From assembly GCA_054600435.1 (NCBI GenBank), contig BAAIJX010000061.1, forward strand, positions 1-64,000: a stretch of DNA of 64,000 bases. The letters are read 5' to 3'. Shown here piece by piece: positions 25,798 through 32,719 of the stretch. This stretch comes from Neophaeotheca triangularis. Its lineage: Eukaryota. The notes under the pieces were generated by a model. That model searched no databases, was not told the origin of the DNA, and saw only the letters and a program-made list of their open reading frames with translations. The translations under genes and the position numbers were made by a program. How positions within the stretch are numbered: position 1 is the first letter of the stretch; every line of letters begins with the position of its first letter.

Positions 25798-28569
25798 TCA
25801 CTCACCCGCATCAGCACCGCCAACGCACCCCTCGCACTTCCACCCCCAAAACCTGCGCTCGAGACCTACGCACGCAAGGTGGAAGACCCGGCGCTTGCAA
25901 GCTCGCGACTCGCACTCAATGGTGCCGCGTCTCTCGTTAACCGCGGGGCGGTTGCAAACGCAGAGGCCGTCATCGGAAAGCTCTGTCGCTGGGGAAGGGT
26001 CTTGAAATTTCCCGAGATCGGAAGAGGGGGTGGGGAGGTTGTCTCTGGAATTGTCATGGTGGGAGTGGGAGGGAAGCGCAGAATAGGGGGTGTTGTTTAG
26101 GTTTTCGTTGGGAATGGGGTCGAGGGTCGTTGTCGAGGCCGCTGAGAGGCGAGTGCGGTTGATTGCGCTGGGTCGCTCGCGGTCCTGTCGTTTTTGGCCG
26201 CGGGGTGTATCTGGCAGTTCGACAAAACCCCTCTCGGCGTCCCATCTGCGGCGGGTGCGGGAAGAGGAGAGACGGCTGCTAGCTGGGCTGTCGGAGCGGG
26301 AGGTGCTGTCGAGAGCGTTTTTTCCGTCGGCCTCTTCTGCACCGACTTCTGGAGACTTGGTGCGCTGTTTCTTCTTCGCCTTTAGAAGGGCGGCTTCCAC
26401 GCTACGGGGCACTTCGCCGCTAGCTGCACGCTTGTGAGCTAGAGCTTCTGAAGCAGCGCGACCCTCGAATGGCAGCTTGCCGATGCCATTGGGTGTAACC
26501 GTTCCTTGTTTCGAAGTACGCCGATGATTTGCCGCTCTATCGGGTCGACCATTCGCAGCGGCTGCTTCTTGCACTAATGAAGGCCGGCCGTCACCGTCTT
26601 GGACGCCATCAACACCCGGAGGCCCAGCGAGCAATTGGTTACAATAGCCAATCGTAGCCTCGTCCACAATGCCATGCCTCCCCAACAACTCCATTTTCAA
26701 GTCGAATTGGTGCCTCCATTCCCTATGCAGCAGCTCCGTCCGGAACTTCCGACAAAACCTGACAAACGCATCGCGAGCCAGAACGTTCGAAGCCGTCTGC
26801 TCAAAGCCCAAATGCTGGTTGAAAGCACGATGAAAGTCCAGACCCGCTTTCGACATGTCCACGACCGCGAGTTCGCTGTGATGGCTTTGTTCTAGCCAAG
26901 CTTCGTCAACTTCTTCGTCGCTCTCGCTGAGCTCTTCGCCGGGCTCAGCGATGCGCTTGGAAGTCGTGCGGTAGAAGCGAACGTCTGGAAGGTTGGGAAC
27001 TTTATGTCGCCGTTTTGCGTCTCTAGTTAATTTGGGTAGGTTTGGAACTTGCGTGGGGTCTTTGTGTTCGCGGTCTCGGACGACTATAGGCTTCTTCTCT
27101 TCTATTCGTCGCATGTTGGTCGAGGATGTTCGGGTCAGCAATTCCTTGGGCAGTCGTCCTCGTCTGGCAGACTGTCTTGTGCGAGTCTGCGTGTGCCCTG
27201 TCCATGTGTCCTCACCTTTAATATACGCCGCTTCATCGAAAGGCCGGTCTGTCGGAGCAATCCACGAGAACTCTAGCTCGGGTGTTGGCGATTCGGAAAG
27301 TCTTTCTATAAGACTGAACGTGATGGTCCTGCTTTCCGCCACAGACTTCGCCTTTGTGCCCTCTCTAACCTCGCATCGGAAATGGCTGTGGTTCACACTG
27401 TAGTGCATCAAGAGTCGTTCAAAGGAAGTGTGTACGATCCCGTCGCCACAAATGACGCATTCCAGGCCATCCCTGGTCATACTGCGCGTGACATCTCCTT
27501 CATTAAAGAGGTATGTAATGCGCACAGTACGCGAGCCTTCAGATTGTGCCAAAGAATCCGGCGTAGGCATCTGGGCGGTCGCACTCTGAAGTTGTCTGTT
27601 GTACCTAGCCAACGGGGAATCCCGTCGCTTTGCCCAGCCCATACTAACTCGTAGACCATAGCCCACGAGTGCTCGGGGTTGGCCATGCCGTTTCAATTCC
27701 AGCAAATCACTCTCCTCTGGACAGGTTGGTAGATTGTCCCAATAAGCGTGTAGAATCGGTGGTGGTGCGTCTCCCCTGTCGTCATCAAGACTCTTGCTTT
27801 CCATGAAATTCAAGATTTGATCGCCATTCTGCGAATCCAGGCATTGCAGGATAATGACCATGCGATAGTCATCCAACACCGTGCTTTCAAAAATTCGCTG
27901 TCCGTTTTTGCGGTGCTCGTTGGTCACCTTGAGCTTGCTGATGTCCACAAAGAAGGGACTTTCAAGCTCTATCGACAAGAAATCGCGGTTTGATTTGCCA
28001 ACAACCACGCCATCGCGAGAAGACTGATAGAGATTCGTCTTCTCTTGAGTCGCCCTGACAATGACATCGACGCGACAGAGGGCTCTGATCGTAATACGTG
28101 GATCAGGCAGAAAAGCATCGAGCTCTTGGTGCTCTCTAAAGATCTTGTCAGCTAAGACAGCATCACGTGACCATCTCCAGCCAAATACTTCCTTCATAAC
28201 ATACCCTATATCATCCCCAAGCCCCTGAATCTCCTTCGCGAAAGGGCTAATCCGTAATCCATCCACTTTCAGCGCCGGTTTCTGGCCCTTTGTAAGATTC
28301 TTCAGCATCTCGAGAGAGGGATACTGCAAATTAGACTGATTACGATTGGGCCTCGTAACGAGCGCATCTGAAAGCAAGAACAACACACCCTCACTCCCGC
28401 TCGCACTCTGTCGCTGTCTCAGTTCGGCAAGCAGTCGTGAATGCCAGTCCAAAGCGCTATTGACGTTGCGCCGTAGAAAGGTAGGTTGTGCCTGGCGCCG
28501 CTTTGCGAGGTGTCGGTCCAGGCTCACGTTGGCCACAAATTTCCTATGAGCGGCTGATGACTCTACCAT
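25798..28569 (-). CDS. SUZ12: PRC2 subunit Suz12-like protein (C2H2 finger + VEFS box) with a C-terminal PHD finger
   Basis: 923-aa ORF with zinc finger CVICG...FERLLMHYSVNH, VEFS-box start RFYRTTSKR...ELSESDEEVDEAWL, and a C4HC3 PHD at the C-terminus. Confidence 0.8.
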   Translation of the reverse strand: MVESSAAHRKFVANVSLDRHLAKRRQAQPTFLRRNVNSALDWHSRLLAELRQRQSASGSEGVLFLLSDALVTRPNRNQSNLQYPSLEMLKNLTKGQKPALKVDGLRISPFAKEIQGLGDDIGYVMKEVFGWRWSRDAVLADKIFREHQELDAFLPDPRITIRALCRVDVIVRATQEKTNLYQSSRDGVVVGKSNRDFLSIELESPFFVDISKLKVTNEHRKNGQRIFESTVLDDYRMVIILQCLDSQNGDQILNFMESKSLDDDRGDAPPPILHAYWDNLPTCPEESDLLELKRHGQPRALVGYGLRVSMGWAKRRDSPLARYNRQLQSATAQMPTPDSLAQSEGSRTVRITYLFNEGDVTRSMTRDGLECVICGDGIVHTSFERLLMHYSVNHSHFRCEVREGTKAKSVAESRTITFSLIERLSESPTPELEFSWIAPTDRPFDEAAYIKGEDTWTGHTQTRTRQSARRGRLPKELLTRTSSTNMRRIEEKKPIVVRDREHKDPTQVPNLPKLTRDAKRRHKVPNLPDVRFYRTTSKRIAEPGEELSESDEEVDEAWLEQSHHSELAVVDMSKAGLDFHRAFNQHLGFEQTASNVLARDAFVRFCRKFRTELLHREWRHQFDLKMELLGRHGIVDEATIGYCNQLLAGPPGVDGVQDGDGRPSLVQEAAAANGRPDRAANHRRTSKQGTVTPNGIGKLPFEGRAASEALAHKRAASGEVPRSVEAALLKAKKKQRTKSPEVGAEEADGKNALDSTSRSDSPASSRLSSSRTRRRWDAERGFVELPDTPRGQKRQDRERPSAINRTRLSAASTTTLDPIPNENLNNTPYSALPSHSHHDNSRDNLPTPSSDLGKFQDPSPATELSDDGLCVCNRPAVNERRGTIECESRACKRRVFHLACVGLERRFWGWKCEGCVGGADAGE

Positions 28570-29694
28570 CGTTGAAGCCGTGCATTGGGAAGTTGGTGGT
28601 ACTTTGAGAGTGGAAGCTGGAAGGGGTTGTTGGTGAGGGGATTCTCATTGTTTTAGGAGGGTGAGGCCATTTGTGTGGGCGATTGGAGGGGTTAATTCCG
28701 CGAGACGATGAGAGACTCCAGGTCGCTGATCCAGTGGGCTTTGTGTTGAGACGGGTACTGGCAGCTTGCAGACGCGTCGAGCCTTAGGGTAGATTGACGC
28801 GCGAATTTCAGGTGCTGGCTTTCTACTTGTTGCCGTATCGGGAAGGTATAGCTCGGGAAGTGGCAGTTGACCCTCTACAAGGCTGGGTGGAGGAATTTGA
28901 GCATGTGGAGTTGGCTTAGCAGCGTCTTTCCCAGAAGTTATAGTCCATTGATCAGGTAGCTGTTGTCTGTATTGTTTGTAATCTAGAAGCGCAGTAGAAA
29001 GAATATCTTGAAGTCGAGCTTTCGAGAGGAGCGCGTTAAGATCCAGTCCAGGTGGCCAATCAGAAGCGTCCTAGTGAACCCACTTTCATCAGACCTAGCA
29101 TTCTACCTAACGGTTCTACTTCTATCACTTGACAGAGATATCTTACTAGAAGAACATTTGATAGCACGAGTAGTCTAGAGTGAGTAACCGGACAATGTAG
29201 ACGAGGAGATAGTACAAGAATAGATCTCGCCTTGTGAACAGGGTCTATACCTAGGTAGCCTCTCCATCCAAGCGAGCTCTAAGACGAGTGTCATAACGCA
29301 ATACATACAACATTGCTTAAAAACACCCGAAACAGAAGATAACTTATACCAAAAGAACAAATCACCAACTGAAAAGCACTCCTCGTGGAGAATCCACATC
29401 ATTCGATTACCGCAGTATACCATACTATACGCTCTTAACCCTCCTAGCACCAGAAACGCCACGGCTATGGAACGAGAGAGAAGAGGAAAAAGAGTTCAAC
29501 ATCCTCTCTCAGCCTGTCGAAGAAAACCTGCCAAGCCCCGCAATCAACTGCACAAAAGTTTCCGGCACTACCCAGAAATTCACGACAACTTTCGCGTAAG
29601 AAAAAAGGGGGTAGGAAGCATGAGCTTTACACGCCCGTATAGTTTACCAGCTGACACCTCCCTTTTCCCTGCTTCGCGAAGGGCAGGCAGCCTT

Positions 29695-30766
29695 TTAACA
29701 GCAGCCGCCCGCGCTGCCGGACTGCACGCCCTGGCCCTGCCCAACTTGCACTGTGGGCTTGTTGTTGACGGTGGTGTTACCCATGCGCTCTTTGATCTGG
29801 CGCGCCATGGTCAGGAAGGCTTGTTCGACGTTGCTGGCGTTCTTGGCCGACGTCTCGAGGAAGGGGATGCCTAGGCTGTCGGCGAATTCCTACGATCGGG
29901 TGAGTATACGTTAGCTTCTTGTTCTGGGATAACAACCTAGGGCTGTTAGGTTGGAGACACTGACCTTCGCGACTGTGTACTCCACGACCTTCTTGTCCGT
30001 CATGTCGCTCTTGTTGCCGACGAGCAGCTTGTTGACGCCCTCGGTCGCGTAGCGGTCGATCTCTTGCAGCCACTGCTTGACGTTGTTGAAGGAGTCCATA
30101 TCAGTGACATCGTAGACGACGCAGATGCCGTGAGCGCCGCGGTAGTAGGAGGAAGTGATGGTACGGAAACGCTCTTGTCCAGCCGTGTCCCACTGTAGAA
30201 GAAAGTTAGCAATCTAATCCCCACTATGAATGCTGTTCTTCTCTTTAAAGCATGATAAGGACCTACAATCTGCAGCTTCACCGTCTTCCCATCCAACTCA
30301 ATTGTCCTGATCTTGAAATCAACGCCGATGGTAGAGATGTAGCTCTCAGTGTAGGTGTCGTCGGCGAATCGGAGAAGGAGACATGACTTTCCCACACCCG
30401 AGTCTCCGATTAGCAGCAGCTTGAAGAGGTAGTCGTATCTGGGAGTGCGTGTTAGGTTCGGGTTGTCCAAGTCCCACGCGCCAAAGCCTGGCTTGGAGTC
30501 TTGCTGTGTCTGAACCTGTTGTTGCTGGGGTTGCTGGCGCGGCACTTGCTTGCGAGGAGGTGCTGTCGACATGTTCGCGCCTTGGTTTGGGGTCGTGGGT
30601 TTAGGGAGTTGGGTGGATAGGGAGTTCGCTGCGCGATGGTTTGGGTTGAAGGTAGGGATGAGGTTGCACAGGTAAGACTCTATAGGTGAGAATGCGTCAG
30701 TAGGCTGCAATCATACAATTATTTGCTTGCGCGAGACAGGGTTGCGACTTACTACTCGGGATTCAT
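29695..30766 (-). CDS. YPT1: Rab1/Ypt1 small GTPase, 201 aa; exons 30766-30756, 30438-30267, 30192-29965, 29889-29695
   Basis: [25 protein letters not shown]...[22 protein letters not shown]...GNKSD...ETSAK...GGCC prenylation end; exon lengths sum to 606 nt. Confidence 0.97.
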
Positions 30767-31028
30767 CTTTGGGGTGGTTTTGCTTTGTTTCTGGGATAGG
30801 GTTCTGTGTTGCCGGATGCGCAGGCTGTGTTTTCCGAGTGTTCGGTGAGGGTGGGCTTTCTGGGTTGGAGGATGTTAACAGAGAGAGAGTGTATTCGGTA
30901 GAAGAGGCGGACTGGGGACGGGGTAAGTTAGTCTGGTGATAACACAGGCTCCAGGTGATCTCGACGTCGATGAAGCAGCGGCAACGCCATGGCCGGCGCA
31001 GCCCAAGCTCGGACGCCTTTGAGCTTGA

Positions 31029-31036
31029 GTCACGTG
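31029..31036. promoter_or_regulatory. GTCACGTG E-box (Cbf1-type site) upstream of YPT1
   Basis: Exact CDEI-like motif about 265 bp upstream of the ATG. Confidence 0.35.
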
Positions 31037-31366
31037 CATCCATTGAGTGAGACAGCTTCGTTTCTGACGAGTGTTTCATTCCAGATTTCAGATTTCAAGC
31101 ATCGAGCAAAATGTCTCCATTGAACAATGACTACACGTGTTTGTTTGACTAGATCACTACGTCAGAGATTACCACGCACACAGAGAATCGTTCGTTGTCT
31201 GTCTAGGAAAATATGAGCTATCCAGGAGGGCGAGTGCCCGAACGCCTTTTCCAATCCGCATAATCGTTGGCAAATATGAACAACGAAATCGTAACAATCA
31301 ACAAGCGAAGATGTCTTCGCACGCTCATGCTCACCCTCATTGAACCTCCCTTACCCTCTTCCTATC

Positions 31367-32719
31367 TCACCTCCAGGCTGGGTTAGCCGGCGGCGCACTA
31401 GATTCATACCCTCCACCAAAACCCTGCTGCCCTCCATAACCTCCATGCGACCCTTGAGGCTGGTATCCACCTTGTTGCTGCCCGTAATGCTGCGCAGGCG
31501 GCGTCGAATACTGACCTTGTGGCTGCTGTCCATTACCGCCGAAAGCGCCGTACTGGGAAGGATCATAAGCACCAGCGCTAGGTTGCTGGGGCTGGGCGTA
31601 CGCGGCACCGTGTTGCTGCGATGCTTGACCATATCCACCCGGTTGTCCCTGTTGTACGCTTTGTGGGGCGCCATATCCTCCTGGCGGACCGCCGTGCTGG
31701 CTGGGGGGCTGTTGAGCATAGGTTTGCGTCCCGTAGGTGGGCTGTTGGCCAGGAGTGTTGTAGCCGAATTGCTGTCCAGGAGTACCGCTTTGCGAATGTG
31801 TGGGTTGATATGTCGGGGCGGACCCAGTGTAGGTCCCGCCGGTGCTGTCGCTCGACGAGTATCCGTACCCGCTTTGCTGTTGCTGACCGTGGTGGCTGCC
31901 CATGAAATTGCCAAACATGCCCCCCATGCCAGAACCGTGGCTTTGCCCTTGTGTTTGTGCATGGGGTTTGTTGCCGCCTAGGAAGCCACTCGCCAGAGAT
32001 CCTACCAGACCCCCACTCCCGCCACTGTGAGCTTGTTGTTGCTGCTGCTGCTGCTGCTGTTGTTGGTGCCCTCCACCGCCCAAGAACGAGGACGCAAACC
32101 CCGCGAGTCCACCGTGTTGTCCGCCATGAGGTTTATTACCACCCATAGCCATGTGCATCATATCGCTCTGCCGCTTGTATTAGTCGCTTTCTTCCCTAGA
32201 CACGCTGTCCATAATTCGCGACGTACTCCAAACCCCCTATCACTGCCCTGACCATCCGGCGCATAAGTCATGCTACCATCATTCCTCTGCTCCAAACCAC
32301 GACTCCCAGGCGCCGGATACGGGTTCTCAAGGTTTGCAGGTGTGCCACCGGGCGTAGGCACTTGCGGCGCAGGCGTTGTCGGCACGTCCCATGTTGACTC
32401 GCCTGTGCTGATCTGGACGTAATAATATTTTCTCGATCTAAGTTGGCGGGAGTCAGTTCCAGTGCTTGCGGGAGGTGCAGTCGATGGGCTGGATGGGGAT
32501 CTCGCGAGAGTATTCGAAAAAGCATAGAGGGCTGCGGATTAGTCCACTCACTTTGCGTCCCATTGTGCGGTCCTTCAGAGCGCGAACCCGACTACGTCAG
32601 TGTCCTGGCATAGGTACCTGGGGATGAGCAACGTTGGAGGGAGTAGGGACCCACCATCCGGGAGGGAGGGACGGCGGCGATTCGTTTGGGCCGGCGTCTG
32701 GTGTTGTTGGTTCTGCCAT
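31367..32719 (-). CDS. WW-domain protein with a G/Q/Y-rich low-complexity region (Wwm1-like); exons 32719-32655, 32572-32552, 32437-32227, 32167-31367
   Basis: Splicing gives the WW domain LPPGW-TAQWDAK-SRKYYYVQISTGESTWDVP; three introns restore the frame into the 264-aa ORF. Confidence 0.85.

Follow-up and report, generated by a model that had tools for sequence, protein, structure and literature searches.

A probable [D3,4] spliceosomal twin intron in the first intron of the Neophaeotheca triangularis YPT1 gene

The YPT1 locus and its first intron

The minus strand of a 64,000-nucleotide (nt) stretch of DNA from Neophaeotheca triangularis (positions 1 to 64,000 of contig BAAIJX010000061.1, assembly GCA_054600435.1; hereinafter the window) carries a YPT1 gene, for whose first intron an earlier note, made from the letters alone, had proposed a nested organization, i.e., a spliceosomal twin intron (stwintron). 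The exons and introns of this gene (Table 1) yield a spliced translation of 201 amino acids (aa) with the C-terminal end GGCC, in which the CC prenylation motif is present. The family name Ypt1/Rab1 is one that we presume for this product; the assignment of the intron to YPT1/Rab1 in the earlier note agrees with this Rab1-type translation and its GGCC end, and the relatives matched by the peptide encoded by exon 2 (see below) share Ypt1 sequence blocks with the window protein.

The gene model draws on the exon-bearing metatranscriptomes X1, X3 and X5, which come from three studies; these and a further dataset, X24, all consist of assembled contigs and were mapped on positions 29400-31100. The joint 30756/30438, which skips 317 nt on the minus strand with GT..AG ends and zero letters between the exons, occurs in X1 (study P1) and in X3 (study P2), on a single contig in either case; the X1 contig shows 2 other letters in 275. 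The final junction put forward in the earlier note is thereby carried by RNA contigs of two studies. The 317-nt intron of YPT1 is real, and the RNA joints fix the gene model. This joint requires that the 5′ cut precede the hexamer GTAGTA, which excludes the visible GTAAGT three bases further on as its site. Upstream of the junction the same contigs extend the 5′ untranslated region of YPT1 to at least 30927 (30756-30927 in the X1 contig and 30756-30919 in the X3 contig), while the contigs of X5 are limited to the 3′ half of YPT1. X24 differs from these in having flat depth everywhere, and within intron 1 it departs from the window only at 30745 and 30646, neither of which touches a splicing signal; by these properties it appears to behave like DNA of a strain about 99% identical. 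One X3 contig additionally contains a joint 30192/30376, skipping 183 nt, with ends that are not GT/AG and one side just 20 letters long, which probably stems from another organism or an assembly chimera. A micro-exon inside intron 1 was considered as well and is ruled out, as 30438 directly follows 30756 in the RNA contigs.

The intron so delimited contains two sets of splicing signals, one inside the other. A script scan of the minus strand from 30800 to 30430 finds a sole GTNNGY hexamer, namely the GTAAGT at 30752, and the latter opens a complete 73-nt internal intron with a branch-like motif and an acceptor of its own. The remainder, 3 + 241 = 244 nt, is an external intron whose branch-like CCTAAC precedes its acceptor, the CAG at 30439, by 13 nt. 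The hexamer at the actual 5′ cut, GTAGTA, matches the fungal donor consensus GURWGY (PMC12403724) at only three of its six positions, consistent with the claim in the earlier note that excision in one step needs a poor donor; removal of the 73 nt would join GTA to AGT and bring a perfect GTAAGT, matching at six of six, directly to the exon boundary. The mature product translates as MNPEYDYLFK. In contrast, both the product lacking the inner intron only and the one joining the inner donor to the distal acceptor translate as MNPE followed by a stop. The earlier note had stated as much for use of the visible GTAAGT with either acceptor, and these translations, as well as those of four relatives (TAA or TGA), bear it out; every sequence element and coordinate that it gave for the nested intron was likewise recovered when re-indexed base for base on the minus strand.

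Table 1. Positions of the exons of YPT1 and of the elements of its introns in the window
Feature	Position	Strand	Basis
YPT1 exon 1, coding part ATG AAT CCC GA (Met-Asn-Pro and two bases of Glu4); start codon ATG at 30766-30764, exon end (...CCCGA) at 30756	30756..30766	-	sequence, RNA contigs
GTA, first 3 nt of the split external donor	30753..30755	-	sequence; RNA joint sets the 5′ cut before 30755
Internal intron, 73 nt	30680..30752	-	sequence; equivalents in L033, L047, L048, L058
Inner donor GTAAGT	30752-30747	-	sequence
Inner branch-like ACTGAC, branch A at 30697	30701-30696	-	sequence
Inner acceptor TAG	30682-30680	-	sequence
AGT, last 3 nt of the split external donor	30677..30679	-	sequence; AGT/AGC after the inner acceptor in 5/5 sequences
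External intron, 3′ part, 241 nt	30439..30679	-	sequence; RNA joint sets the 3′ cut
Outer branch-like CCTAAC, A at 30452	30456-30451	-	sequence
Outer acceptor CAG; exon 2 begins at 30438 (A TAC GAC)	30441-30439	-	sequence, RNA joint
YPT1 exon 2 (A TAC GAC ... CAG ATT; YDYLFK...KLQI)	30267..30438	-	RNA joints 30438/30756 and 30192/30267, translation
YPT1 intron 2, GTAGGT...CAG, 74 nt	30266-30193	-	RNA joint in X3
YPT1 exon 3	29965..30192	-	RNA joints
YPT1 intron 3, GTCAGT...TAG, 75 nt	29964-29890	-	RNA joints in X1, X3, X5
YPT1 exon 4, stop TAA	29695..29889	-	translation

Proposed excision in two steps

We consider it likely that intron 1 of YPT1 is a donor-disrupted stwintron of the type [D3,4], i.e., one in which the internal intron splits the external donor between its nucleotides 3 and 4, and that it is spliced in two steps. 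In the primary transcript, the GTAAGT at 30752, lying 3 bases inside the intervening sequence, would be the single usable donor. Intron definition would pair it with the near branch ACTGAC and the TAG at 30680, such that the 73-nt inner intron leaves first. Ligation of GTA (30755-30753) to AGT (30679-30677) would then generate a new GTAAGT donor directly after exon 1, from which a second, ordinary U2 reaction with the distal CCTAAC and the CAG at 30439 would remove 244 nt and join GA to A TAC, giving MNPEYDYLFK. We infer that such an intermediate exists and that the two reactions follow this order; the junction 30753/30679 of the intermediate is predicted to read ...CCCGAGTA|AGTCTTAC....

Five of the six features that define donor-disrupted stwintrons are found here, the sixth being a detectable intermediate. 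The internal intron is a complete and canonical U2 intron with donor, branch and acceptor; it lies within the 6-nt external donor, which is completed only by its removal (5/5 sequences, i.e., the window and four relatives); the external intron has its own downstream branch and acceptor, in the four relatives too; the mature mRNA is joined at the predicted outer boundaries (X1, X3); and introns of the same layout occur at the orthologous position in all four relatives with complete loci. The proposal of the earlier note, a nested intron splitting the external donor between nucleotides 3 and 4, is to this extent supported by the RNA joint, the four relatives, shuffled sequences and 21 control introns, with the passage through the intermediate remaining a predicted part of it.

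Ratchet-point recursive splicing, as known from Drosophila and vertebrates, likewise proceeds through a first reaction that regenerates a 5′ splice site for the second. It starts, however, at the donor of the exon itself, and its AG/GTRAGT element rebuilds the donor from its own sequence. By comparison, the first step in YPT1 would begin 3 nt inside the intron, and the second donor would be assembled from GTR and AGY. As an explanation of the YPT1 intron, recursive splicing of this kind was rejected, as the intron contains no internal YAG/GTNNGY and has AGT instead of GT next to the inner acceptor.

The nested layout in relatives and in controls

Relatives were sought by scanning metagenome contigs with the exon-2 peptide, and the best 80 of 474 loci were used and grouped by the bases that precede the Tyr5 codon. 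Among these best 80 of 474, five (L033, L038, L047, L048 and L058; hereinafter GA/A loci) have an acceptor at the position of that in the window (YAG/A TAC), and another five (L015, L020, L026, L027 and L057) have one 3 nt further on (YAG/C GAY). The other 70 read straight through or match from a later residue only. The GA/A loci are also the only ones with a Ypt1 identical to that of the window over the anchor blocks, which span 158 residues (121 in L047, whose contig ends early); for the remaining loci, the longest tblastn match to the window protein is at most 83% identical. At third codon positions the identity of the five GA/A loci to the window is just 0.49-0.63, and 0.53-0.77 among themselves, by which measure the silent sites across these loci are heavily diverged. 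From the style of their introns together with the protein identity, we take all five to be filamentous ascomycetes. They further share an extra intron of 57-90 nt between GVDF and KIRT that the YPT1 of the window is without, which suggests a loss in the window lineage or a gain in the others.

A scan of genome contigs for fungal contamination gave only bacterial and archaeal Rab-like genes. Contigs of metagenome-assembled genomes of Gammaproteobacteria (L081:31-2085 on the plus strand, and also L082 and L083) encode a Rab1-like domain 70-75% identical to the exon-2 peptide. In L081 this domain forms the C-terminal part of an open reading frame (ORF) of 684 aa that lacks a C-terminal CC motif and whose large N-terminal region is unrelated; it is a eukaryote-like Rab domain in a bacterium.

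L038 was left out of the comparison of layouts because its contig ends 93 nt upstream of exon 2. All four of the other GA/A loci, each with a complete intron, display the nested design GTR | GTNNGY ... RYTRAY ... YAG | AGY ... branch ... YAG (Table 2). Across these and the window, the inner branch A lies 13-27 nt before the AG of the inner acceptor, the distal YAG is preceded by the second branch at a distance of 9-13 nt, and the inner and outer halves are both of normal fungal intron size. The lengths of the two halves vary independently, the inner being long in L058 and the outer in the window, with the YAG/AGY junction constant throughout. In each of the five sequences the direct donor (GTAGTA, GTAGTG and, in three, GTGGTA) agrees with the consensus at three of six positions and the rebuilt one (GTAAGT, GTAAGC and, in three, GTGAGT) at all six. 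A MAFFT alignment of intron 1 has few conserved columns outside the head and the block of the inner branch and acceptor. Given that the silent sites are saturated and the intron is otherwise unalignable, the retention of these signals implies selection. The alignment across related species that the earlier note had suggested as a check thus comes out in its favor, with the inner signals and the AGY after the inner acceptor kept in 4/4 loci.

Table 2. Layout of intron 1 in the window and in four GA/A loci, with the number of hits among 5000 dinucleotide shuffles of each intron core (features A and B as defined in the text)
Sequence	Head	Inner branch	Inner acceptor and next triplet	Distal branch and acceptor	Inner/outer (nt)	A+B	B alone
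Window	GA·GTA·GTAAGT	ACTGAC	TAG·AGT	CCTAAC...CAG	73/244	4/5000	178/5000
L033	GA·GTA·GTGCGT	ACTGAC	CAG·AGC	ACTGAC...CAG	69/85	3/5000	38/5000
L047	GA·GTG·GTAAGC	GCTGAC	CAG·AGT	GCTAAC...TAG	67/91	2/5000	38/5000
L048	GA·GTG·GTACGC	GCTAAC	CAG·AGT	TCTAAT...TAG	65/80	1/5000	39/5000
L058	GA·GTG·GTATGT	ACTGAC	CAG·AGT	CCTAAC...TAG	183/78	3/5000	105/5000

Splice motifs are short and common, and in four of the five introns (L047 being the one with none) other AG sites occur that would give GTNNGY-like donors; an ordinary long intron might on this account come to hold donor-like and acceptor-like words by chance. For the shuffles in Table 2, feature A was defined as a GTNNGY at +4, and feature B as a branch plus a YAG/AGY site that leaves neither half shorter than 45 nt. 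The two coincide in at most 4 of 5000 shuffles of any one intron. Control introns, 21 in number (17 other introns of these six genes, together with the first introns of 4 outgroup loci), have feature A in 0/21 cases and feature B in 0/21. Together with the recurrence of the layout, at differing lengths, in diverged lineages, these figures make a chance origin extremely improbable.

The controls also bear on whether the 317 nt might leave in a single reaction at the weak GA/GTAGTA, with the inner branch, acceptor and AGT unused and, in one variant, U1 settling on the adjacent GTAAGT, which may act as its landing pad. The final junction is the sole RNA species observed and fits such one-step splicing equally well; moreover, occasional removal of nearly the whole of a [D1,2] stwintron in one reaction has been reported (PMC12403724). 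One-step splicing leaves unexplained, however, why a branch, a YAG and an AGY should be kept in five of five introns that are otherwise unalignable. Furthermore, in none of the five lineages has the direct donor come closer to the consensus at positions +4 to +6: all five have T at +5, where 20 of the 21 control introns have G. Accordingly, we regard one-step splicing as improbable. The single control intron without G at +5 is a 58-nt intron of L047 after ...YTVAK, with the donor GTACAA.

Another proposal, also raised in the earlier note, is that the stwintron doubles as a regulator, with competition between the acceptors giving an MNPE-stop product that is cleared by nonsense-mediated decay (NMD), and thereby setting Rab1 dosage. 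Joining the inner donor to the distal acceptor does produce a stop codon in every sequence compared (TAA in the window, TAA or TGA in the four relatives), and an analogous product of missplicing to the distal site is known for [D1,2] stwintrons (PMC12403724). Nevertheless, the stop follows automatically from GTR and the initial A of exon 2, such that its conservation is uninformative. The corresponding joint 30753/30438 is not among the joints of the RNA contigs, even those seen in a single contig, and heads of this misspliced kind number 0 among 100 loci; both are weak negatives. Such a regulatory role is a speculation, and a rather unlikely one.

Against the two-step excision of a [D3,4] stwintron, which we favor over these alternatives, several points have to be weighed. 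The intermediate joint 30753/30679 is absent from the RNA contigs, which have zero depth over 30483-30710 and in which a transient species is not expected, and intermediate-like heads were found in 0 of 100 loci, again a source not expected to show transient species. The comparative evidence is less broad than five sequences might imply: they share descent, and hence the shuffle figures are not simply multipliable; L047 and L048 are fairly close to each other (third-codon identity 0.77); and lineages without the layout may exist beyond the best 80 of 474 relatives. In L058 the inner boundary is ambiguous, a second CAG/AGT site without a branch motif giving an inner length of 110. Finally, the head GAGTR-GTNNGY, i.e., feature A, also occurs in L026 and L027, which have a plain intron. 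Feature A was probably inherited from an older intron, and with its presence in plain-intron loci the argument comes to rest mainly on the inner acceptor and the AGY that follows it.

Known stwintrons, a possible origin of the YPT1 intron and its surroundings

The stwintron types demonstrated to date, as given in those parts of the literature that were covered, are [D1,2], [D2,3], [D5,6] and [A2,3] (PMC5639578, PMC12403724, PMC7138796, PMC9024468, PMC5587772, PMC8469720, PMC6616335). To these, [D4,5] was added as new from Lipomyces lipofer (PMC7138796), and [D6,7] and [D7,8] are counted in this literature as stwintrons sensu lato; according to its authors, one seldom encounters a type that is not [D1,2]. 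The statement of the earlier note that the known types are mostly [D1,2], [D2,3] and [D5,6] is in line with this literature, to be extended by [D4,5] (PMC7138796). The type [D3,4] was not found in the passages covered; provisionally, the sub-type is apparently undescribed. Within the covered text, "ypt" is nowhere to be found in PMC9024468, PMC8469720 and PMC6616335, nor is "rab" in the first two, and among the 20 papers listed of 15,080 for stwintrons together with YPT1/Rab1-type GTPase genes none mentions a stwintron, itself a weak negative.

One close parallel is the [D2,3] stwintron of bioDA in Sordariomycetes and Botryosphaeriales, where a nested U2 intron similarly splits the donor of a conserved gene at an ancient position; an entire fungal class has retained it, and a functional mRNA depends on both of its inner splice sites (PMC5639578). 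It differs in its host gene and in that the split falls between donor nucleotides 2 and 3, as opposed to 3 and 4 in YPT1. Further, it shares its position with a plain intron of distant taxa, whereas the YPT1 junction is 3 nt upstream of the plain intron of the outgroups. The rtnA stwintrons, [D4,5] in Lipomyces lipofer and [D5,6] in Pezizomycotina, are also rare and have their inner intron within the donor hexamer (PMC7138796, PMC6616335). They have been validated via the intermediate, whereas the YPT1 case is known from sequence and the final junction, and they are located in a poorly conserved N-terminal extension, unlike that of YPT1, whose host gene codes for a highly conserved GTPase and is interrupted after codon 4.

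The [D1,2] stwintrons of Hypoxylaceae and Xylariaceae are excised from the inside out in two steps, and their one-reaction product uses the inner donor with the outer acceptor (PMC12403724). They start with GGT and are often repeated as species-specific "sister" copies; that of YPT1 is in contrast single-copy, conserved in position and starts with GTR GT. The missplicing of YPT1 also leaves 3 nt that form a stop codon, which sets it apart from [D1,2] stwintrons. A link between a stwintron and discordant positions of neighboring introns in orthologues, as we see here, has been drawn for an alternative [D1,2]/[A2,3] stwintron, proposed as the mechanism by which an intron shifts (PMC5587772). There, the shift amounts to 1 nt and comes about via loss of either inner intron, while the offset in YPT1 is 3 nt with the phase kept and the stwintron would, unlike in that case, be the derived state in the lineages observed.

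This offset offers a clue to the origin of the YPT1 stwintron. The outgroup loci L015, L026, L027 and L057 have a plain intron within Tyr5, which begins after GAN TA and ends in AG/C GAY. It is 3 nt downstream of the junction in the window and in the same phase, and its donor aligns with that of the inner intron. Three of the five stwintron loci now read TG in place of the former Tyr bases, a change consistent with a release from coding constraint and a capture by the GTR donor rule. On the simplest reading of these alignments, the older plain intron would be the inner partner and the final junction would have moved by one codon. We tentatively extend this to a fuller scenario, which we hold to be possible though doubtful, in which the first intron preserves the record of a one-codon shift, with an ancient phase-2 Tyr5 intron inside and a younger external intron around it that placed the final junction in Glu4 (GA/A TAC), selected across deeply diverged filamentous ascomycetes, and with the order of splicing maybe setting Rab1 dosage by way of the intermediate and the missplice product, both of which would contain a stop. 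If this is true, the intron already present would have taken the internal place and not that of the host.

Among natural examples, stwintrons prove intron-definition pairing in fungi most clearly, and they serve as models for the gain, loss and shifting of introns. Nearly all known ones are of the type [D1,2]. A [D3,4] stwintron would, if true, be the first of its type and complete the series of splits within the donor hexamer. YPT1 is an essential, extremely conserved, single-copy gene present in every fungus, which makes a stwintron in it easy to trace in phylogenies and to test in model species, and the 3-nt offset from the plain intron provides a concrete case for examining how an intron position may slide without a change in the protein. 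On the practical side, in genomes of this kind the 11-nt first coding exon of YPT1 will escape gene callers that require a consensus donor.

At 244 nt, the outer intron of the window is about three times as long as those of its relatives (78-91 nt), the added sequence being C/A-rich. It is open in frame with exon 2, and an ORF extends over 30000-30710 with an ATG at 30572-30570, by which a retained intron could extend the N-terminus of Ypt1. We rejected such an extended Ypt1, since the stretch is poor in T and free of stops in each of its three frames, and since the relatives have an outer intron of only 78-91 nt; the open frame is probably an effect of composition. On the two sides of YPT1, and likewise on the minus strand, the window contains an open frame of 270 aa upstream (31367-32179), which is of low complexity and rich in Gln, Gly and Tyr, and one of 948 aa downstream (25798-28644) with a Cys/His-rich C-terminal end.

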